From a virus: 64,000 nt of DNA. A program made the translations under genes and the position numbers. Location: the IMG/VR virus record IMGVR_UViG_3300020582_000006, positions 1 to 64,000 of that record; one strand, 5' to 3'. The notes under the pieces were generated by a model. The model did not search any database. It was not told the DNA's origin and worked only from the letters and a program-made list of their open reading frames with translations. Positions 7,170-42,986 of the stretch are shown here, in pieces; the first letter of the stretch is position 1, and the number at the start of each line of letters is the position of its first letter.

Positions 7170-7217
7170 CAGCTGTTCCGTTATCCCGAATTTTCAAAAG
7201 CGAAGGACCTATTTCCT

Positions 7218-8891
7218 ATGGCAACGTTTCCGCTTTCTCTGCCGCTTAATGACATCATTCCGGTTACCGTCGTCATCTCGCCGGTGGTACCGCCAGGGCC
7301 TGCTTTCAACCAGGCGCTGATCCTCGGTTCGAGCACAAACATTCCGTCATCCATCCGCCTGCTGCAGTTCACCGCGCTCACGCAATTGACGGTCAGCAAT
7401 CCGAGTATCGGCTTCGTCGGCTTCGCACCAACCGATCCGGAGTATCAGGCGGCTGAGGTCTACTTCGAACAGAACCCGGCGCCGTTCTATCTCTGGATCG
7501 GACGCCGGGACCTGACGGCGCTCGGTGCCGTCTCGGTCGCGGCCGGCGGGACAGGCTATGTCATCGGCGACATCGTAGCAGTCGTCGAGTCCGCGAATTC
7601 GACCGGCAGTCTGGTGGTAACTGGCATCGTGAGCGGCACCGGCGCAGTAAACGGTGTCAATCTGATTCCCGGCAAGCAGGGCACCGGCTACTCGACCGGG
7701 ACCGCCTTACCCACTACAGGCGGAACAGGAACCGGCCTGACGGTGACGATCGTATCGACCGGCGAATCCCCGGCTGCGGCCATGGCCGCTTGCCGCCTCG
7801 CTTCGCCCCAATGGTATGCCGCGTCGAACGTCAGTCTTCAGGACTCAGGCACACCCGTTGCCACGACCACGGCCATAACGAACGCGGGACTGCCGCTCAT
7901 CAACGTAACCAGCCCCACCGGGATCGCTGTCGGGCAAATCATTACGGGCGCAGGCATCCTGGGCAATACAACCGTCATCGGTCTTATACCGGGCACGCCC
8001 GAAGTGGTTGAGCTTTCGCAGGCTCCGACCGCCAGCGGCACCGCTGTTCCGGTTCAGTTCTTCGCCCCGCTTTCCGTCCAGTCGAACGTCAATCTGGCCA
8101 CTTTCATCGAAGCTGCCACACCGCCCAGCATCCTGTTCCTGACTTCGGGCGATCCGGCGATCCTCAATAATTCGCCGAACAACCTGTTTGCGACATTGCA
8201 GGCCGCGAGCTTCAATCGCACCTGTCCGGTCTATGCGACGACGGAGCTGGGCGAGTCGAATCAGTTCAACGCTTACGCGGGCGTGGCGGCGATGGGATAC
8301 GCCATGGGCGCGAACACCGGCACCGCGTCGAGTTACTTCACGCTCATGTTCAAACAGCTGATCGGGATCATACCGGAACAGCTGACACAGCAGCAGGCGA
8401 CTACCATTTCCGGTTCGGCCGACCGGACCAACATGGGCCTGAACGGGAATATCTATGTCAATTACGCCAACGGCGATTACAAGATCTTCCAGAACGGAAC
8501 CATGGCCTCGGGCCGCTTCGTGGATATCACGATCTTTCTCGATCTTCTGGTCAGCGAGATTCAGTACGGCGCGATGAACACGCTGGTTTCCCAGCCTTCC
8601 ATTCCGCTCAATCAGGCCGGGATCTCGATGATGATCTCGGCGATCACTCAGGCTTGCGTGGCGCTCCAGACCATCGGCTTCATCAACACGTCCGGCGTCT
8701 GGCAGGGCGTCACTATCGGGCCGATCAGCCCGGGGACCAATCTGCCGAAAGGCTATTACGTCTACTCGCCGCCGGCGAGCTCGCTCACGCAGGCGCAGCG
8801 GCAGAACAGGCAATTCCCGCACATGAACGTCCTGATCATCCTGGCCGAATCCGGCCAGTCGCTCGCCATCACCGTGAACGTTCAGCCGTAA
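7218..8891 (+). CDS. Contractile tail sheath protein (DUF3383-like)
   Basis: PEYQAAEVYFEQNPAP, TLMFKQLIGI, GTMASGRFVD and GYYVY motifs. Confidence 0.88.
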   Translation: MATFPLSLPLNDIIPVTVVISPVVPPGPAFNQALILGSSTNIPSSIRLLQFTALTQLTVSNPSIGFVGFAPTDPEYQAAEVYFEQNPAPFYLWIGRRDLTALGAVSVAAGGTGYVIGDIVAVVESANSTGSLVVTGIVSGTGAVNGVNLIPGKQGTGYSTGTALPTTGGTGTGLTVTIVSTGESPAAAMAACRLASPQWYAASNVSLQDSGTPVATTTAITNAGLPLINVTSPTGIAVGQIITGAGILGNTTVIGLIPGTPEVVELSQAPTASGTAVPVQFFAPLSVQSNVNLATFIEAATPPSILFLTSGDPAILNNSPNNLFATLQAASFNRTCPVYATTELGESNQFNAYAGVAAMGYAMGANTGTASSYFTLMFKQLIGIIPEQLTQQQATTISGSADRTNMGLNGNIYVNYANGDYKIFQNGTMASGRFVDITIFLDLLVSEIQYGAMNTLVSQPSIPLNQAGISMMISAITQACVALQTIGFINTSGVWQGVTIGPISPGTNLPKGYYVYSPPASSLTQAQRQNRQFPHMNVLIILAESGQSLAITVNVQP

Positions 8892-8920: not shown

Positions 8921-9442
8921 ATGGCCCAGGGAGTACTTGCTACTTATTCCGGACTGGCTCTGAACGGGGCGATCAACAGTCCGCTTTTCGGTGCGATCAT
9001 TCTGGCCGGCATCAATCAGGCCGGTATCAATCGGATCACGATCCGCATGGACACCAACCATGCGGAGTTGAAACGAGGCATGGACGGCGCACAGGTGCCG
9101 TCTTACGTCCCCGGCGAGTCGGGCGTGATCGAGATCAGCGTCTGGCAGACCAGCCAGCTGCAGCAGCAATTACTGCAGGCTTACAACGCCGTGCTGACGC
9201 TGTCGCTCACCGGCGACGTCTCGGAGTCGTTCGGCGCCACCATCTATCTGGAGAACACATCCGATCAGTCCTCGCATACCGCTTCCGGCTGCATGCTGCA
9301 GAAGGTACCGGACAAGCCTTATCAGGAACAAGCCCAGGAGGTGAACTGGATGTTTACCTGCGCCCACATCATCTCGGAACCGGGCGGCGCGGTCGGCGCG
9401 GTCATCGGCTCCGTCTCGTCGGTCCTCTCAGGCCTCGGCTAA
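8921..9442 (+). CDS. Tail tube protein (DUF3277-like)
   Basis: Follows the sheath gene; GMDG, GVIEISVWQTS, KVPDKPY...WMFTC. Confidence 0.8.
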   Translation: MAQGVLATYSGLALNGAINSPLFGAIILAGINQAGINRITIRMDTNHAELKRGMDGAQVPSYVPGESGVIEISVWQTSQLQQQLLQAYNAVLTLSLTGDVSESFGATIYLENTSDQSSHTASGCMLQKVPDKPYQEQAQEVNWMFTCAHIISEPGGAVGAVIGSVSSVLSGLG

Positions 9443-35508: not shown

Positions 35509-37891
35509 TCCTCCGTGCGCGGGATGTCGTGTTCGTCCTGGTCGCCGTGACACTCAGTCTCGCGATATGGGGGATCATCTGGCTCGCGAAACATCCCTGC
35601 ACCCGCTCGGTGACGCATCGCGTCTGGGTCGATCAAATCACGACTTACGTGGATACCGGCGGCGGGATGAGGAATGCGGACGGAGAGTTTATTCCCGGGA
35701 CGGGAATCAAGGTACCCTTCACGACACCGGCCCACTTCGAGGATCAAACTATCTGTATGGAGCGCCGCCCATGAGGAGTTACACCTACAGGCGCAAAGGA
35801 AACCGGCTCATCGACGGCGATACGCCGCCGATGCCGCCGCCCACGCTTTCTCCCGCGCAGGAGAAGGCCGAACTGCTGCGCCTCGCGCGGCTTTGTGAAG
35901 AGGGCTGGTCGACGATGACGGCGATCCCGCTCAAAGCCCCGCCGATGCCAAAGCGCAATTACCCGATCCCCGAACGCTGGCGGAGAGCTGTGTGATGCCA
36001 CCTGTAACATCGCATGTTACGCCTTTTCAGGCGATCCAGGTCCTGTTGTCATTACTCAGCCTGTTCTTTATTGTGATGGCGGCCTGTATCTCAGTCCGGG
36101 CCCTGCGCACGCTGAAAAAATTCATCAGGCTGCAGGGCCGCATCAACGATCTGACGGATGAGCGGCTGCAGATGCTCGAACGGGAGGAGTACCGGTGATA
36201 GCGGTCCGTGTGTTCCTGTCGATGACGCTGACCGTGCTCGCCGCGCTCGAGTGGTACACGGTCCTCGAGCGCGTCTCGCTCGACTGGTATGCGGACCAGC
36301 TGGTCGCTCAGGTGGAGATGGAGACGGGCCGCAAGTACCCGGCTGCCGCCAAAGCGCAGCTCTACGCCATCGTGAACAAAGCGCCGTCCTACTCGAAAGT
36401 GCTGCCGCCGGCGCTGGTCAACACCGTGACGGCCGCGGGCGCGTGGGCGCTGACATTCTGGGCGATTCGGCGCAGAGATCGCGAGGAACAGGAACAATCA
36501 AAACAAGATGACCTGCAGTTATTGCGACGAAGAGATTCTCAAACATGAGCCGGTCGGCTTCAACGGCTCGATGCATCAGGAGTGCGCCTGCCGGGCCATT
36601 ATGGGATCTGCGGCTCACCAGATGCACATATGCCACTGCTTCGGCGGCCGGGGGGAAGACCCGCCTGAATTCACGGCACGCCAGGGCGCGAAACTGGCAT
36701 GGGAGACGTTCCAGGCACTTAAGAAAAAGAGAGAACAGGCCAGCCTGAACTGAGATGAAGATCATTCACATACTCGGCACCGCATCAGGCCAGCCTCATC
36801 CCTATGACGACATGTACCTGCTGCAATACGATCCCACCGTGCGCCCGGATGGTATGATCCTGCTCGAAGTCGTCTCGGATCCGGCCTGCGCCAAACGCTT
36901 CGCCGACGCCGGCGAGGCGCTCGAAGAGTGGCGGCGTTCCAACGGCAGGCTGCGGCCGGACGGGAAGCCGGATCGCCCGCTGACTGCCTTCACCGTCGAT
37001 ATTATTGACGCGCCATGACACGCAAACGAGTGGTCCAGATCCAGCGGCTGTCTATCTGTGAATGCGGCTTTCCGCTGCTCAAAGTGGAAATCGGGATCGG
37101 CGCTGAGTACACGATCGATCTCGACAGCGTGAGCACGAACGGCTGGCACCTGAAGTGCGGCGGCTGCGGTACGGTGATCCGCGATATCACGACGGTGATG
37201 GCGTCGTCGACGCTCGATCCGAATCGTCCGCCCGCGCGCCTGCCTTACGCGATCTTTCTCGGCAGCCGCGTGGCGCCGGTCCTTACAACTCCCACCCGAC
37301 AGGACAAAACCCAATGACCGAACACGAAGTCATGATTTGCGCCCCGGCAGACGGGCTATGGACCATACCCGGCTCAGTTTTCGATAAGATCTGTGTGCGC
37401 TGCGCCGCGCCCGTCATGATGGCCCCGTCCGGCGTTCGTTACATGGAAACTCACACGGTCGAAGTGATCTGCATGATCTGCTTCGATCCGCAGGGCCGCG
37501 ACCGCAACGTCGCGAAAAAGATCCGCCTGACCGCGCCGGTCAGCGTCATCAATGGAGAACTTATGAACGTCACCCGGAACTACCGCGCGAGGACCACGAA
37601 TTGACGCCGCCGATGGGTTACTCGCGGGCATCTGAAGCCGAAGATGCCGACGTGATCCTGCGCATGTCCGAAAACGACTACATCATGCTGCTGACGTCTC
37701 TGGGTATGGCTTATGCTTCAGGCCTTCAGGAATCCCTGCCGATGATCAACCGCATCAACGCAGGCAATCCGGACTTTTCGCCGTATGAATCCTCGGAAGA
37801 CCTCGAAGCGAGAGCGGCGCAGACGGTCGCGATGCTCCGGAAACTAATGGAAGGGACGGACTCATTTCATGTGGGAATGCGCTCAGTGTAG
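35505..37891 (+). CDS. Run of about nine small coupled hypothetical genes (35505-35774, 35771-35995, 35992-36198, 36195-36548, 36508-36753, 36755-37018, 37015-37317, 37314-37604, 37601-37891)
   Basis: Overlapping start/stop coupling; several are membrane or Cys-rich proteins. Confidence 0.55.
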
Positions 37892-39065
37892 TCTGACGCG
37901 AGAGAAGCCGGTAAGCCGGCCGCCGATGGGCTGGAAACGGCGCGGCAAAGCCATCTATTGCAGGGACTGCTGGCGCAAGCTCTACGTGCTGCGGGCTGTC
38001 ACGATCCCGGTCGTGAGCCCGCTGACGCTCAAGTACAAAGCTGATGAAACGCTTCACCCCTGCGACTGGGATGAGTTCGGGAAACGCCTGCGCGAGCAAT
38101 GGGCGCTGATCACCCAGGCTTCCAACTGGATGATGACCGAGATGTACATGCGGGATGACCGGTCCCGCGACAAAGGCAAGCTGCAGCCGATGCCCGGCGT
38201 CTATCTCTATCCCGAGACGCGCAAACAGTTTCCCGGCATGGCCTCGCAGACCACCGCGGCCCTCGAGAACCAGATCGGCAAGAAATACCGGGCGAAGCGT
38301 TTCGATGTGATCTGGACCTGCCGCGCCAGCCTGCCTACCTTCCGCTACCCCACGCCTTTGCCGGTACCTCATCAGGCATGGTCAATAAGACTTGACGATA
38401 ACTGCCCGCTCGTCTCCGCGCCTATTGGAGATGCGCGTGTCGAATTTCGCCTGCGCAACGGCCATCAGTTCCGCCGGCAGCTGCTCGCCGTGAAGCAGAT
38501 CATCGCGGACGAAGCCGAACCCGGCCAGATGGATCTCTACCGCCAGGGCAAATCGGTGATGTGCAAGCTGGTCGCCTGGCTGCCGCGCCGTCCGGTCGAG
38601 ACGAAGATCGAAGGCACGCTGTTCGTACGCGCGGATGCGCAGGCGCTGCTGGTGGCTCTGAACGTCAAGGATGACCGTCTGTGGACCTACCATGGCGATC
38701 AGGCGCGTCGATGGTCAGCAGCGCACCGCCGGTTGCTCCAGCGCCTTGCAGACGACAGCAAGGCCGAACACAGGCCCACTGTGCCTTTCCACGCGCGGCG
38801 CGAGGCCGCGGCCCTCAAATATCGGGATCGCATGTCGAGCCTGACTCACCAGATCGCCGCTATGACTGTGAACTACGCCTTACGGCGGAAGTTCGCCGCC
38901 GTGCGCTATGACGACACCGCCCGGGACCTGTTCTGCCCCCACTTTCCCTGGCACATCCTGCGGCTGAAGCTCGCTGAGAAATGCGATGCGGCCGGCATCG
39001 AGTTCCATGCGGTGACACCCGGGGAACCGGAAGAAGTCTTGCACGAACCGGTAATGGAGGAGTAA
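37869..39065 (+). CDS. Nuclease-dead Cas12f/TnpB-like protein with N-terminal zinc ribbon
   Basis: Cas12f-like motif order: YPETRKQFPGMAS, SLPTFRYPTPLP, VKQIIADE, H-x-IA...VNYA, FPWHILRLKLAEKCDAAGIEF. RuvC-I GID is replaced by FVR, RuvC-II E by D (VRYDD), and the protein ends before the C-terminal CxxC and RuvC-III. Confidence 0.75.
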   Translation: MWECAQCSLTREKPVSRPPMGWKRRGKAIYCRDCWRKLYVLRAVTIPVVSPLTLKYKADETLHPCDWDEFGKRLREQWALITQASNWMMTEMYMRDDRSRDKGKLQPMPGVYLYPETRKQFPGMASQTTAALENQIGKKYRAKRFDVIWTCRASLPTFRYPTPLPVPHQAWSIRLDDNCPLVSAPIGDARVEFRLRNGHQFRRQLLAVKQIIADEAEPGQMDLYRQGKSVMCKLVAWLPRRPVETKIEGTLFVRADAQALLVALNVKDDRLWTYHGDQARRWSAAHRRLLQRLADDSKAEHRPTVPFHARREAAALKYRDRMSSLTHQIAAMTVNYALRRKFAAVRYDDTARDLFCPHFPWHILRLKLAEKCDAAGIEFHAVTPGEPEEVLHEPVMEE

Positions 39066-39225
39066 ACTTTTGGTTTCCGCGCCACCGACAGGCGCAGGCC
39101 GCTTATTCGCTGGAAACGCTTGCCGATCCAGTCGACGCGGCAAAGCTGCTGTTAAGGGTTCCTGATATGGGCGCAAGCCGCAGCCGGGAAAACGATCATT
39201 GAAAGCAGAATCGACCGATTCGGTA
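39066..39225 (+). ncRNA. Putative guide-RNA scaffold (omega/tracr-like) with a single CRISPR-like repeat and guide
   Basis: Hairpins 39079-39095 and 39120-39143; 37-nt GGGCGCAAGCCGCAGCCGGGAAAACGATCATTGAAAG at 39169-39205; putative guide CAGAATCGACCGATTCGGTA. Confidence 0.55.
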
Positions 39226-39241
39226 CAAGACACCGGGTAGC

Positions 39242-40680
39242 GGTCGTCTCGGCATCAACTCCGACTGCTGATCGGATCGGGCTTGTTGTGGGCCTCCTAC
39301 CTGATCGTTCGGTATGGCTGCTCGCGCGACGTTCGGGTGGGATTCGTTCGGTTCATATCTGGATTCGTTCGGGGGGCTCGCAACTCGTCGGATCGGCACA
39401 AGAGACGGCAGATCGGTCGGTTGGAACAGCCAGATAGGTCGGGGCAACGCCGGATGAGGCTTTCGGGTGCTTAATCCAGATTCCCGTCGGGAAAGATGAG
39501 TCAACCGGTTCGGGGCCTGCTACCTGATCGGTCGGAAACCCGTCGCCGAACTGATCGGGAGATGATCGGGCGTTCGGGGGGATAGGTCGGGGTACTCGCA
39601 GTCCTCGGGTCGGGAATAGTTCGGGAAACGATCGGGAACTGATCGTGTCGGGTCTTGCATCTGTCCACCGTCTCGGGTTGCGAGTCATTCGTTCGGGTGG
39701 TCTCGATGGCTGGTCGTCTCAGGCCCTGAAAGACCAGATCGTTCGGGTTTCGCGGATGTGGTTCGTTCGGGTGTTGCATCTGCAACCATCGTTCGGGTTT
39801 TCAACTTCGTTTCGGCGGGGACTGTCGGACCACCGAAGGCTGGTCGTTCGGTCGCCACTGCCGCTCAGATCGTTCGGGACACAACTGGGAACTGATCGTG
39901 TCGGGTCTTGCATCTGTCGATTCGGGATTTTCGGGTCACGACCATTCGAGATCGGTCGGGTGGGGCAAGAACAAGATCGGTCGGGGTAAGTAGCGAGATC
40001 GGTCGGTATCCGATTTGTTCGGGTCTTTAACTCGTCCTCTGGCCTGTTCGTTCGGGGGATGTTAGCGGAGATCGGTCGGGCATCCTGGCCTGTTCGTTCG
40101 GGAAATAGCCTAAGCGGAGATCGGTCGGGCAACTTGAAAGAGGCCTCTGTATTTCGGGCACCCCGTCAAGGAGTTCGTTCGGGGATATATCGGCCGGGAA
40201 ATGGACAAGCCGGCGTCGAGATCGGTCGGGCTGTAGCAAGGAGTGCCGGTCGGGTCGGTGGAATCAGCAGCCGAAGCTATCAGGCGTCGAGATCGGTCGG
40301 TCAAGGAATGGTTTTTGATCTTTCGGGGCCTGGGCGAAATATCTGCAATCGGTCGGGGAAAGATTTGGATCGTTCGGTTCGCCGCGACCGTACCGGGCGT
40401 CGTGATCGGTCGGGCCAAGCTCATGATCGGTCGGGCTGTGGAGTGATTTCATCGGGATTACCGGCGTTTGCGTGATCGGTCGGGATTTGTTCGTCAGTGA
40501 GGATCGGTCGGGGCTCGCGCTGTTCCCAGGCTCTCGTCAGCGGTCATCGGGATTACCGGCGATCCGGGTCGGTCGGTCAGAAAAAGCTCGAGTGCCTTTT
40601 TCCGGCGGGGTGTTTCAGCGGAGCTTTGTTTCGGTTCAATGAATTGATCGTTCGGTATCTGTCACTTTTCCACAGGTCGG
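39242..40680 (+). repeat. Strand-polarised array of short (GA)TCG(G/T)TCGG(G) motifs with variable spacers
   Basis: About 29 exact TCGKTCGG copies (by-eye count) plus many degenerate ones, all on the + strand, mostly 20-28 nt apart; no consistent coding frame. Confidence 0.9.
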
Positions 40681-40829
40681 CGCGCCGACTACTGGTTCTT
40701 TCTACAGGAGTTAATACAGGTCAATAAGGAAGGGCGCCCCTAAATCTACGTATGCGCGCCCCTAAATCTACGTGCCCGGGTTCGCATCGCATTGATTCGA
40801 CTGAAACCAAAGCGCCCCTAAATCTACGT
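40666..40829. promoter_or_regulatory. Iteron-type plasmid replication origin
   Basis: Three 18-bp GCGCCCCTAAATCTACGT copies (40734, 40756, 40812); DnaA-like box TTTTCCACA at 40666; AT-rich ACAGG repeats; adjacent to the rep gene. Confidence 0.8.
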
Positions 40830-40847
40830 GCAAAAATGCAGAGATTC

Positions 40848-41834
40848 TCAGGGTTTTCCTCGTTTCCCCGCTGCCGGGCGAATCGCCTGGCCTGGTCGGA
40901 CGACGAGGAAATCGGCCGTCAGCTCTGCCGGACACGCAGGCCAAAGTCCGCGAACGGTATCCATCCATTTCGATATCTGTTCCCGGAATCGACGTGGTCG
41001 CGCGTAGTCTATTACCCCTAATTGAAATTCCAGTCCCGCTTCTCCGAATATGGGGATGAGTTGCTCCTGCGTTGCCGTGAAGCAGCGCCAGATGAGCCAA
41101 CACGTGAAATCCAGTGCGCCCGGAGCATGCGCCAGCTGCCGGACTATGTTCATATCAATCGGGATCGGGTGGTTTTTTACTTCGTTCCAGAACTGCTCTG
41201 ACAGCACGATGACGTTCTGAAAGTCTTCACCCGGCAATCCGGGGTGGTCGCCGTTTGAATACCAAAGCCGCATCTGATCGAAGAAATTGAACCGTGACCG
41301 ATCGATGTATCTGGCCTGTCCTCTTGTGCCGTCGGTACTGAAGTAGATCGTGGCATCAAAAAGGCGCTCGAAGCCCTCGACGATGCGTTTGTAGTGGAAC
41401 CCGCTGGTACTGAGTCCGAACTCGCGGAGCATCTCAGCTGCGCTGTCGAAGGTAACGCGTCGGTTCTGTTTGATCACAGCAAGAGTACTGATCCATAAGG
41501 GAATAAGCCGGTCCTGACCGAAGGGAAGCCCCAGTTTGGAAGTGGTCGCTATGCGTAATGAGAACCGCCCGTTGACTCGCGTATACTCCTTGACCCCTGC
41601 AGCTGGCCGCCGGATAGGAAGCCCGCACAGAACGAATGGACGCGTGTTATAGCCTATCGATTGTCGGCCTTCCTCTCTCGCCGCCCGGACCAGTTCGATA
41701 CCTTCGACGCGCTTCTGAAATTGCTTTGATACGCCACGAAGTTCGCGTCGGACCGGCTCGGCTGGAAGATCCAACCCGTTGACGAAGTCCGTATCCCCTG
41801 CTCTCACCAATGCCGGTTTTATGTTGTCTTTCAT
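40848..41834 (-). CDS. repA: Plasmid replication initiator (RepA_C / IncW-like)
   Basis: FVLCGLP, RVNGRFSL, GLPFGQDRLI, LSEQFWNEV..HPIPID and ALDF..WL.WR motifs; ATGA-coupled start. Confidence 0.85.
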   Translation of the reverse strand: MKDNIKPALVRAGDTDFVNGLDLPAEPVRRELRGVSKQFQKRVEGIELVRAAREEGRQSIGYNTRPFVLCGLPIRRPAAGVKEYTRVNGRFSLRIATTSKLGLPFGQDRLIPLWISTLAVIKQNRRVTFDSAAEMLREFGLSTSGFHYKRIVEGFERLFDATIYFSTDGTRGQARYIDRSRFNFFDQMRLWYSNGDHPGLPGEDFQNVIVLSEQFWNEVKNHPIPIDMNIVRQLAHAPGALDFTCWLIWRCFTATQEQLIPIFGEAGLEFQLGVIDYARPRRFREQISKWMDTVRGLWPACPAELTADFLVVRPGQAIRPAAGKRGKP

Positions 41835-42196
41835 AGCTCGTGGCACTCGAACAGACTCCCCTGGCTGTAGATGGAACGTAACGCCTCGCGCGGGATCTCC
41901 CATGCTGGCACACTCGCGTACTCGATCTCGGGCAGCAGCCACAGCTGGCCGGACTCGCGCGCCCGCCGGCGGCGCATGACGGCGATCTTATGCCGCGCGT
42001 CGGCCCGGGAGTGGCAGGGAGCGCAGCGGATCCGCACGCTCGATGTCCGGGGATCGTGCGTCTCATGCGTGAGCTGCACGTACCGCGGAATCGGGCACAG
42101 ACAGTCGCGGCAGACGGCGCCGCGCGAGGCGATCAGGGCCAGCCGGTACCGCTGCCACTCCGGACCATAGAACTGCCTGTAAGACGCCCGGATCAT
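41831..42196 (-). CDS. HNH-like zinc-binding protein
   Basis: C..C...LTH..H...CAPCH pattern. Confidence 0.55.
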   Translation of the reverse strand: MIRASYRQFYGPEWQRYRLALIASRGAVCRDCLCPIPRYVQLTHETHDPRTSSVRIRCAPCHSRADARHKIAVMRRRRARESGQLWLLPEIEYASVPAWEIPREALRSIYSQGSLFECHEL

Positions 42197-42462
42197 CGCT
42201 TTACGTGGGCTCTCTTCTTCCCAAGCGGCACTGTCGGCACAATCAGGCCGGACAGTATGTCGGCTTCTCTCGCCAGCGCGATCGGATTGGGCCGCACCGC
42301 TCCCGTGAACCAGCTGGAAAGCCCGGCTGCAGCTTCGGCGCAGCCTGAGCACAGTGTTTCGTCATGCCACGAGCACGGCGGATCGCAGGCGTTCTCTTCC
42401 GTGCAGGCGCAGACTCTGCAGGCACGTTGTTTCGGCTTCGCCGGGAGGCGCGGTTTTCTCAT
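42193..42462 (-). CDS. Cys-rich small protein
   Basis: CRVCACTEENAC...CSW...LCSGC. Confidence 0.6.
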   Translation of the reverse strand: MRKPRLPAKPKQRACRVCACTEENACDPPCSWHDETLCSGCAEAAAGLSSWFTGAVRPNPIALAREADILSGLIVPTVPLGKKRAHVKR

Positions 42463-42986
42463 CGGGCAGCCTCGGCTTTCTTCGGGAACAGCCCCATGAG
42501 GATGCCTTGATAGCCGCTGTGTTCGTCGGCAACCGTGACTAACGGATCGCCGACCAGTTCGATCCGGCCGTCGACGATCTTGTATTCCTGAATGGCAGTC
42601 TGCTGGTAATCGGCTGTCTCGAGCGAACAGGCGACAGCCTCTCGTCTGGGGATTATCCCCAGGTTCATGCAATCCTCGATCGTCAGCTGGAATACCTCGC
42701 GGAAGGCTTGCAGTTCCGGCCGCGTACTGAATGAGATCAGCGTATCGCTCAACATGATCACGGCCTGGATCCCGCCCGACTGGACGCGCCGCCGCAGGTC
42801 TTCGCCCAGTTCAATCTTGCACTCCCGATTGTTGGTCACCTCGTCGTCAACCAGGACGACGTCATAGGAGCCGTCCTGGCGGATCAGATGGAACATCTGC
42901 GTCAAATCGCCCTTGTTCAGGACGATCTGGTCGATGCCGTAGTTCAGCGTTCTCGCTGCCATAGCGATCAGTTCCTCTGTCGTCAT
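42459..42986 (-). CDS. Hypothetical protein (apparent paralog of 53459-54007)
   Basis: Coupled 175-aa ORF. Confidence 0.65.
   Translation of the reverse strand: MTTEELIAMAARTLNYGIDQIVLNKGDLTQMFHLIRQDGSYDVVLVDDEVTNNRECKIELGEDLRRRVQSGGIQAVIMLSDTLISFSTRPELQAFREVFQLTIEDCMNLGIIPRREAVACSLETADYQQTAIQEYKIVDGRIELVGDPLVTVADEHSGYQGILMGLFPKKAEAAR

Follow-up and report, generated by a model that had tools for sequence, protein, structure and literature searches.

Nuclease-dead TnpB and Cas12 proteins acting as RNA-guided regulators are reportedly a recent discovery, with TldR, the sigma-E-linked dead Cas12f (dCas12f) and Cas12m as the known examples. Here we describe a candidate of this kind in a 64,000-nt stretch of viral DNA (the window), which is the first 64 kb of the 85,313-bp IMG/VR record IMGVR_UViG_3300020582_000006. 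The locus consists of a gene for a 398-aa protein, a scaffold RNA resembling a trans-activating CRISPR RNA (tracrRNA; CRISPR, short palindromic repeats that are clustered and regularly interspaced) and an array of shortened repeat units. We regard it as rather probable that these parts form a phage-borne RNA-guided DNA binder or silencer, made up of a dead Cas12f, its scaffold and a half-repeat array. An earlier note, made from the sequence alone, had proposed that the phage encodes a nuclease-dead Cas12f-like protein together with a guide-RNA locus for it, and this proposal is supported by a sequence profile, the predicted fold, a covarying RNA and RNA contigs.

Several inactivated Cas12f forms have been described. 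The sigma-E-linked dCas12f shows C-terminal truncation and a 5'-G target-adjacent motif, and a distinct dCas12f cluster lies near CRISPR arrays in Chitinophagaceae, with a predicted guide upstream of an operon for resistance-nodulation-division (RND) efflux, according to the passages available from Hoffmann et al. (Nature 2026, PMC13472631). In the corresponding passages of Altae-Tran et al. (PNAS 2023, PMC10691335), inactivated branches are reported in Cas12f, V-U24, V-U43 and V-U44, and dead Cas12f is proposed to have lost RuvC-III, while only half a repeat is proposed to have been left of the array, close to the tracrRNA and fused with it. The guides of oppF-clade TldRs measure 9–11 nt and those of other TldRs 16 nt, as stated in a portion of a preprint (bioRxiv 10.1101/2023.11.30.569447). 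In the available portion of a review of CRISPR parts in mobile elements, the word Cas12f is absent (PMC11656645).

The open reading frame (ORF) of 398 aa given in the earlier note exists on the plus strand (Table 1), has a G+C content at third codon positions (GC3) of 0.78 and overlaps the upstream ORF by 23 nt. The database gene call P0001 (379 aa) starts at Met20, which affects window positions 37869–37925, and loses the first conserved CxxC; judged by sequence, the 398-aa reading is the better one. Used as a single query, the protein had no significant match in Pfam, PHROG or the PDB sequences. A word-indexed search found 327 relatives at E ≤0.001 among 3998 candidates, the named ones all being "hypothetical protein" and none having a Pfam domain, and an exhaustive search recovered 915 cluster representatives (50% identity) at E ≤0.001, 733 of them at E ≤1e-10. 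Four N-terminal cysteines and 31 further positions are invariant or nearly so among 36 aligned members. When these were scanned singly against Pfam and NCBIfam, 0/36 gave a significant match, and the sub-threshold hints were guided_TnpB (4/36), Cas12f2 (3/36), OrfB_IS605 (1/36) and the Cas12f TNB domain (1/36).

The profile of the 36 sequences matched OsCas12f in the PDB (9nzq, E 1.1e-7, profile positions 111–385), and also AsCas12f (8j3r, 8j1j, 8j12, 7wju, 8dzj), SpCas12f1 (9i8y) and, at E 1.3e-3, the sigma-E-associated nuclease-deactivated Cas12f (9n9c). The AlphaFold2 model of the window protein has a mean predicted local distance difference test score (pLDDT) of 91.1. Foldseek returned 76 PDB matches at E ≤0.001, with AsCas12f 8j12_B at E 1.9e-17 and template modelling (TM) scores of 0.60–0.65 for the B chains, and VIA-align placed 321 residues on AsCas12f with a Z-score of 23.3 and a root-mean-square deviation of 5.4. 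The VIA Z-scores were 15–23 for Cas12f chains, 18.7 for the sigma-E dCas12f, 12–13 for TnpB and Cas12k, and 11.4 for Cas12m. The structural similarity to Cas12f, which the earlier note had named as a point to check, is therefore present, and the window protein is by profile and model a Cas12f homolog with a predicted WED-REC-RuvC fold.

The catalytic site of the RuvC domain in Cas12 and TnpB proteins is formed by a D-E-D set of residues. In the alignment with 9nzq, the RuvC-I motif of OsCas12f falls on L-F-V-R-A-D of the window protein, where the catalytic Asp is replaced by Arg, and the RuvC-II motif falls on V-R-Y-D-D, where Glu is replaced by Asp348. Conservation at these sites was counted in 261 members, namely the window protein and 260 proteins of 300–480 aa from both family searches. 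Position 254 is mostly Arg (R 164, K 17, S 15, T 14, H 12), with Asp outside the eight commonest residues, and position 348 is mostly Asp (D 188, N 20, T 11, E 10). The profile alignment ends at residue 373 of the 433 in the Cas12f chain, and the window protein stops about 49 residues past D349; the tail after this conserved column has a median length of 49 residues, and just 3/261 members have one longer than 90. The zinc ribbon (TNB) and RuvC-III are absent from the window protein. Longer relatives were not found either, none reaching 808 aa or more and the matches of the first search spanning 253–461 aa. An active type V-F enzyme, which acts as a homodimer on one guide RNA, has an intact RuvC D-E-D triad and a C-terminal TNB located between RuvC-II and RuvC-III, and the window protein has neither triad nor TNB. 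The 9nzq alignment and the 261 members thus bear out the dismantled RuvC described earlier (FVR in motif I, Glu to Asp in motif II, no zinc finger or RuvC-III), and by its sequence the nuclease is apparently dead across the family.

The same members retain an added N-terminal zinc finger. Its CxxC...CxxC pattern, also pointed out in the earlier note, is conserved in 218–234 of the 261 (C4 228, C7 218, C31 234, C34 230), the rest being mostly gaps from short gene calls. The finger (model residues 1–38) lies outside all of the Cas12f structural alignments, which start at model residue ~33–41.

Downstream of the gene, about 140 nt of non-coding sequence had been noticed before; the stretch (~140–160 nt) is present and is conserved in homologs. 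Homologous loci are designated here by L-numbers and the window locus by WIN. In L001 and L002 (proteins 61–63% identical) the first ~160 nt past the stop codon are conserved, and they are recognizable in nearly all loci. Two hairpins, the first of them at the 5' end, are followed in the consensus structure by a long-range stem that lies around a GGGATAT box and encloses a small hairpin, and by a terminal hairpin equivalent to the repeat. In an alignment of 23 regions, 20 of the 22 consensus pairs show compensatory changes. A search for a downstream scaffold shared by homologs had been suggested, and an nhmmer profile finds one in 31/33 loci, 10 of the 31 being outside the training set; the two misses are L013, which is cut inside the gene, and L003, which has 327 nt of flank. 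The matches are always on the strand of the gene, and all lie downstream of it except one of two in L026. The 85-kb genome holds a single copy (nhmmer 39064–39223, E 9e-19). Rfam gave no family at E ≤1 except a chance-level M23 match, and two terminator-like sites are no more than were found in shuffled sequences. The earlier note had also paired a 5' segment, CTTTTGGTTTCC, with a repeat-like unit. This pairing is not conserved in the columns before stem 1, and three RNA contigs begin only at 39083/39086. In L004, a second full scaffold copy with three intact repeats stands at 9275–9435, 2 kb downstream of the first; the half-repeat array and an ORF of 200 aa lie in between, and the protein gene is not present a second time.

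The attachment of the scaffold to the gene bears on the role of the protein. It might have kept the fold alone and do without a guide RNA, with a structural or regulatory function in the phage as one example, and the lost catalytic site and the failure of every Pfam, PHROG and NCBIfam model to recognize it would agree with such a role. We give this hardly any credence, however, since a covarying scaffold and repeats are attached to the gene in 31/33 loci.

By alignment with the homologous loci, the terminal hairpin of the scaffold is a CRISPR repeat. The window copy, the only full-length one in the genome, consists of a 5' arm, a loop holding ATTGAAAG, and a 3' arm with a 5-nt insertion. Ordinary arrays are present in 12 homologous loci, with 3–10 full repeats (13 in L007) of ~36 nt at a period of 71–75 nt and unique spacers of 34–38 nt, and the first repeat is fused to the scaffold. 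Because the unique spacers of these true arrays directly follow the repeat-terminal GG(G), the guide of the window is placed from 39224 onward. The earlier note had ended the repeat-like unit at ATTGAAAG (39205) and drawn the guide boundary at 39205/39206, which is 18 nt off: ATTGAAAG sits in the hairpin loop, and the homologous arrays put the boundary at 39223/39224. A guide start at 39206 was accordingly rejected in favor of 39224 on the basis of both the homologous arrays and the scaffold alignment. Repeats of 23–50 nt with unique spacers of similar size, as in type V arrays, are found in the 12 homologous loci and not in the window, and a conserved structured RNA beside the effector gene, as in type V, is found.

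Transcribed sequence was found in public soil data, 12 of the 24 runs that hold part of the stretch being metatranscriptomes. Contigs of four metatranscriptome runs were compared with positions 36000–42500. They fall within 39083–40142 at ≥99% identity, except for three low-depth pieces in the 3' half of the gene from one run. One contig spans scaffold and array unbroken (39083–39622, depth 16.9). Three runs each have a contig starting at nearly the same position (39083, 39083 and 39086), such coincident contig ends being a weak hint. The absence of RNA contigs at 36000–38170 and 40340–42500 is not evidence of silence. Cover that ends within the stretch compared would not be accounted for by carried-over DNA.

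The array in the window is built of half repeats. Each unit has a variable part of 10–20 nt followed by GATCGKTCGG and mostly a further G, and the commonest lengths are 21–27 nt. Of the 37 matches to TCGKTCGG in the window, 29 fall in 39305–40655, all of them on the plus strand, against 10 expected by chance. The core of the unit corresponds to the 3' arm of the family repeat; it differs from the window's own arm by the 5-nt insertion and from the arm of L020 by one base. This 10–11-nt core is conserved through 53 copies, and the spacers between are unrelated. Arrays of half repeats on the 3' arm of the local repeat also occur in L004 (~37 units), L015 (~49) and L005 (15), and half repeats are mixed with full repeats in L001 and L007. 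In L005 they stand on both sides of the scaffold (7170–7500 and 7566–7890): 12 units running from the stop codon precede it, and three units with a different 5' part follow it. A quick maximum-likelihood tree of 29 proteins was rooted at the midpoint, with L008, L013, L018, L031 and L032 left out as duplicates or as frameshifted or cut genes. On this tree the four pure half-repeat loci (WIN, L004, L005 and L015) need four changes, at least three of which are forced by well-supported branches, and the sister of the window is L002, which has an ordinary array.

Inside the window array, a 50-nt segment is duplicated at 90% identity (39616–39665 and 39869–39918), and one RNA contig joins 39886 back to 39634, that is, it goes back 253. 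The joint and the duplication hint at array-length variants in the population.

In the mechanism that we propose, the protein would probably bind the ~145-nt structured RNA encoded directly downstream. This RNA would consist of the scaffold, ending in the degenerate repeat, and then a spacer, through which DNA would be found by base pairing beside a short 5' motif. By analogy with Cas12m, TldR and dCas12f, the complex may sit on the DNA without cutting it and so block transcription or replication of the target. In the window phage, ~53 half repeats, retaining the 3' arm only, with spacers of 10–20 nt, stand in place of an ordinary array, and array and scaffold are transcribed together. If free, the 5' arm of the scaffold could pair with any of the units and rebuild the stem before the guide, as a tracrRNA does with the repeat of a CRISPR RNA (crRNA). 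Spacers of 10–20 nt would not be out of the question as guides, since oppF-type TldRs have recorded guides of 9–11 nt. It is a tentative proposal, somewhat short of probable, that every half repeat pairs with the arm in this way and thereby supplies a short guide. The fuller proposal is doubtful: a new working CRISPR-like array in which one scaffold serves dozens of 10–11-nt mini-repeats and 10–20-nt guides for multiplexed cut-free binding, and which arose repeatedly, without Cas1-Cas2, from ordinary Cas12f-type arrays.

Duplex energies in relatives agree with the pairing. Cognate duplexes of 5' arm and unit reach −18 kcal/mol in L004, −19 in L005 and −14 in L001, versus −11, −10 and −11 for shuffled sequences, and they are likewise much stronger than duplexes with foreign units. 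The idea rests on these relatives and is unproven in the window. There, the trans pairing of units with the scaffold was not above controls, and several results count against it: the 5' arm and units pair at −9.3 kcal/mol versus −8.4 for shuffles, non-cognate unit sets score equally, the whole scaffold with the units gives −14.3 versus −14.5 kcal/mol for shuffles, and the pairing in L015 is likewise not specific.

Chance-level pairing would be expected if the scaffold with its first spacer were by itself a natural single-guide RNA and the array a decaying or slippage-expanded CRISPR remnant without function. In agreement with this, 13 scaffold copies stand alone with a single repeat, the window array contains the segmental duplications described above, and no targets of the short spacers were found in the 85-kb genome or in 401 Acidobacteriota genomes. 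We nevertheless think a remnant unlikely. Arrays of 15 to ~50 half repeats stand on four or more separate branches beside relatives with ordinary arrays or none, the core has been kept through all copies despite unrelated spacers, the L004 and L005 units retain strong complementarity to the 5' arm, and the array is present in RNA libraries.

The RNA cover and the many copies of just the guide-adjacent part of the repeat would also suit a decoy, in which the half-repeat transcript soaks up a tracrRNA or a Cas12f-type effector that belongs to the host or to a competing element. Precedents are virus-borne solitary repeats that act as RNA anti-CRISPRs and a phage dead Cas9 proposed to sequester crRNAs, both mentioned in the available portion of the review (PMC11656645). 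A decoy is nonetheless improbable, because a host Cas12f system carrying matching repeats was not identified, the units would also tie up the scaffold of the phage itself, and the perfect targets of spacers in the ordinary arrays of relatives fit guiding.

The units could instead work as DNA, as iterons or centromere-like sites for the RepA/ParA module or for the zinc finger of the protein, coupling the locus to the replicon. They are direct repeats ~21–27 bp apart, a spacing common for iterons; the array abuts the 3' end of repA, and ParA and a ribbon-helix-helix (RHH) protein are encoded 2–3 kb off. Such a role is very improbable, since arrays of this type also stand behind the gene in loci that have no Rep or Par gene, the sequence of the units goes with the local CRISPR repeat and not with a Rep family, and the region turns up as RNA. 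At 40734–40831, just past the 3' end of repA, a 20-nt repeat occurs in three direct copies (90–100% identical), which are a better candidate for iterons or an origin than the half repeats.

The spacers of relatives with ordinary arrays have targets. Spacer 5 of L006 matches, over 40 nt at 100% and on the opposite strand, codons 14–26 of a gene for an N6/N4 DNA methylase in the same phage, and spacer 5 of L019 matches 28/31 nt ~45–70 bp upstream of the large terminase gene. In L022, which lies in an 8.1-Mb metagenome-assembled genome (MAG), two of the six spacers (3 and 4) have 36-nt matches with 100% identity on other contigs. One target is beside an excisionase-like helix-turn-helix (HTH) gene and an integrase gene, and the other falls within a Cro/CI-type HTH gene that neighbors a PD-(D/E)XK nuclease gene; their 5' flanks are CTTT and CTTC, where the repeat end supplies CGAG. 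A nuclease acting at the perfect matches of L006 and L022 would be lethal or destructive to the carrier genome, and such matches therefore fit a binder and not a cutter. Together, the targets of the relatives point to gene control and to competition between mobile elements. The same MAG as L022 holds a second array, on contig C11 at 1–588 (L047), that is 91% identical to that of L022, so two related elements may share one host.

Weighed as a whole, the proposal of an RNA-guided binder or silencer faces the following points. RNA binding and DNA binding by the protein are what we infer, as is, from sequence, the absence of cleavage. Folded from the window sequence alone, the scaffold does not surpass shuffled sequences in stability (z −0.05), and the support for its structure is thus comparative. 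No sigma-70-type promoter was found, and the RNA contigs give no strand, ends or processing. The first guide and the short spacers of the window have no target in the phage's own 85 kb, where the short spacers show no excess at 11- or 12-mers over dinucleotide shuffles; an apparent self-target excess relative to mononucleotide shuffles vanished for both lengths under this control. In 401 sampled Acidobacteriota genomes, the window spacers gave chance-level matches only. Five single-guide loci (L028, L025, L020, L027 and L024) have no clear target in their MAGs, none of the array spacers of L016 (0/9) and L031 (0/10) has a target, and two spacers scanned exactly in IMG/VR matched only their own arrays.

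Table 1 Position, strand and basis of the features described in the window.
Feature	Position	Strand	Basis or remark
C-terminally truncated, RuvC-dead Cas12f homolog (dCas12f-like), 398 aa	37869..39065	+	ORF, profile, predicted fold
Added N-terminal four-cysteine zinc finger (C4, C7, C31, C34)	37878..37970	+	Conserved in family
RuvC-I equivalent, residues 251–256	38619..38636	+	Hidden Markov model (HMM) alignment to 9nzq; Asp position is Arg254
RuvC-II equivalent, residues 346–350	38904..38918	+	HMM alignment to 9nzq; Glu position is Asp348
Putative tracr-like scaffold RNA	39079..39223	+	nhmmer, covariation, RNA contigs; ~145 nt
Scaffold stem 1	39079–39095	+	Consensus structure
Scaffold stem 2	near 39107–39131	+	Consensus structure
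Degenerate copy of the ~36-nt hairpin repeat of the family	39184..39223	+	Aligned with first repeats of L001, L002, L020 and others
First spacer, candidate guide of a natural single-guide RNA	39224..39269	+	Position by homology with true arrays
Half-repeat array, ~53 direct units	~39270..40680	+	1.4 kb; begins ~50 nt past the scaffold
RepA	40848–41942	−	Plasmid-type module, with ParA, RHH protein, ParB-like proteins and integrase

Among the described systems, type V-F Cas12f (AsCas12f, OsCas12f, SpCas12f1, Un1Cas12f1) is the best match in sequence and structure, covering residues 40–395. The arrangement is also shared: the array follows the gene, a long tracr-like RNA separates the two, and cas1/cas2 are lacking. 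The two L022 targets have a T-rich 5' flank. Unlike Cas12f, the window family is without the RuvC-I Asp, the zinc ribbon and RuvC-III and has the N-terminal finger added; its scaffold is fused to the first repeat, and the window array consists of 11-nt half repeats.

The sigma-E dCas12f (9n9c, 9n9m) is likewise C-terminally truncated and nuclease-dead, with a single guide RNA that carries the guide at its 3' end, as far as the available text of PMC13472631 goes. In that system rpoE, which encodes an ECF sigma factor, is operonic with dcas12f, and an HTH gene is usually adjacent as well; the window gene has neither partner beside it, and the window family occurs in phages of soil bacteria rather than on Bacteroidota chromosomes. 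Inactivation was probably independent of the sigma-E dCas12f, as the family profile matches that protein more weakly than active Cas12f (E 1.3e-3 versus 1e-7). The Chitinophagaceae cluster, compared by its description in the same partial text, resembles the window locus in having a dead Cas12f by CRISPR arrays, a covarying guide-RNA region upstream of the array and a proposed role in repression. It differs in lying on bacterial chromosomes, and that description mentions no phage context, N-terminal finger or half-repeat array (PMC13472631).

TldRs, as partly documented in the preprint cited above, share with the window protein that some are phage-borne, that they are nuclease-dead and that they use a scaffold with a short guide for repression by binding. 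They differ in deriving from TnpB and in having one omega-RNA-like guide and a tie to fliC or oppF; the window family is nearest to Cas12f (Z 23 versus 12–13 for TnpB) and has arrays. Cas12m (type V-M) is plasmid- or prophage-borne, is impaired in cleavage and silences mobile elements by binding, according to the portions consulted of two sources (PMC11656645, PMC10691335), and the L022 spacers similarly match other integrated elements. Unlike the window protein, Cas12m belongs to a different Cas12 branch, is larger and has no tracr-like scaffold.

The scenario of a half direct repeat fused to the tracrRNA, in the passages available from PMC10691335, resembles the window in that a scaffold is fused to a repeat and half repeats are present. 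There, however, the whole scaffold was later duplicated and the repeats exceed 60 bp, whereas the window has one scaffold and dozens of 11-nt half repeats. Nothing further on a phage-borne dCas12f family or on half-repeat arrays was found in main-text passages of the literature. We regard a phage-borne dead-Cas12f variant with a half-repeat array as new; were the family already named, for example as V-U43 or V-U44, the novelty would lie in the form of the array only.

Capsid, tail and baseplate genes occupy 1–25 kb of the window, which also encodes RecT. No transposase, cas1/cas2 or sigma-factor domain (sigma-70 region 2 or 4) was found among the 46 window ORFs scanned, and no fliC or opp genes are near the window gene. 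This part of the earlier statement on the surroundings stood, but its claim that no CRISPR array is adjacent is right only in part, given the array just beyond the scaffold. In 12 homologous loci, the neighbors are terminase/portal, RecT/YqaJ, capsid, integrase or methylase genes, with no Rep or Par gene among them, and the sole sigma-region-4-like match among their 44 neighbor ORFs is one HTH_17 protein of L005. The coupling to a phage-plasmid replicon that had been inferred from the window was thus rejected as a feature of the family at large.

The gene travels with its scaffold and array as a self-contained module. In L016 (2906–10771) and L019 (491–6972), the whole module has the large terminase gene (gpA type) on one side and the lambda-type portal gene on the other, and this unusual insert position suggests that it moves as a unit. 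Upstream of the gene in L006, at 1–470, there are ~26 tandem copies of an 18-bp unit. They have no relation to the CRISPR repeat and may code for a protein built of repeats. The carrier contigs were mostly binned with Bryobacteraceae or other Acidobacteriota, or with Planctomycetota, and L023, L030 and L026 include Saccharibacteria or Rugosimonospora bins; the host range is uncertain because phage contigs may be mis-binned. Phages and prophages of soil bacteria are the main carriers of the family.

The 915 clusters make up a large family that annotation models do not recognize, and spacers in relatives match other mobile elements as well as the phage's own genes. A targeting system run by a phage without cutting is directly testable. 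With its 398-aa protein and ~145-nt scaffold, the locus is a compact candidate for programmable DNA binding, and the half-repeat arrays, if functional, would show how small a CRISPR repeat can be and how arrays can grow without Cas1-Cas2.

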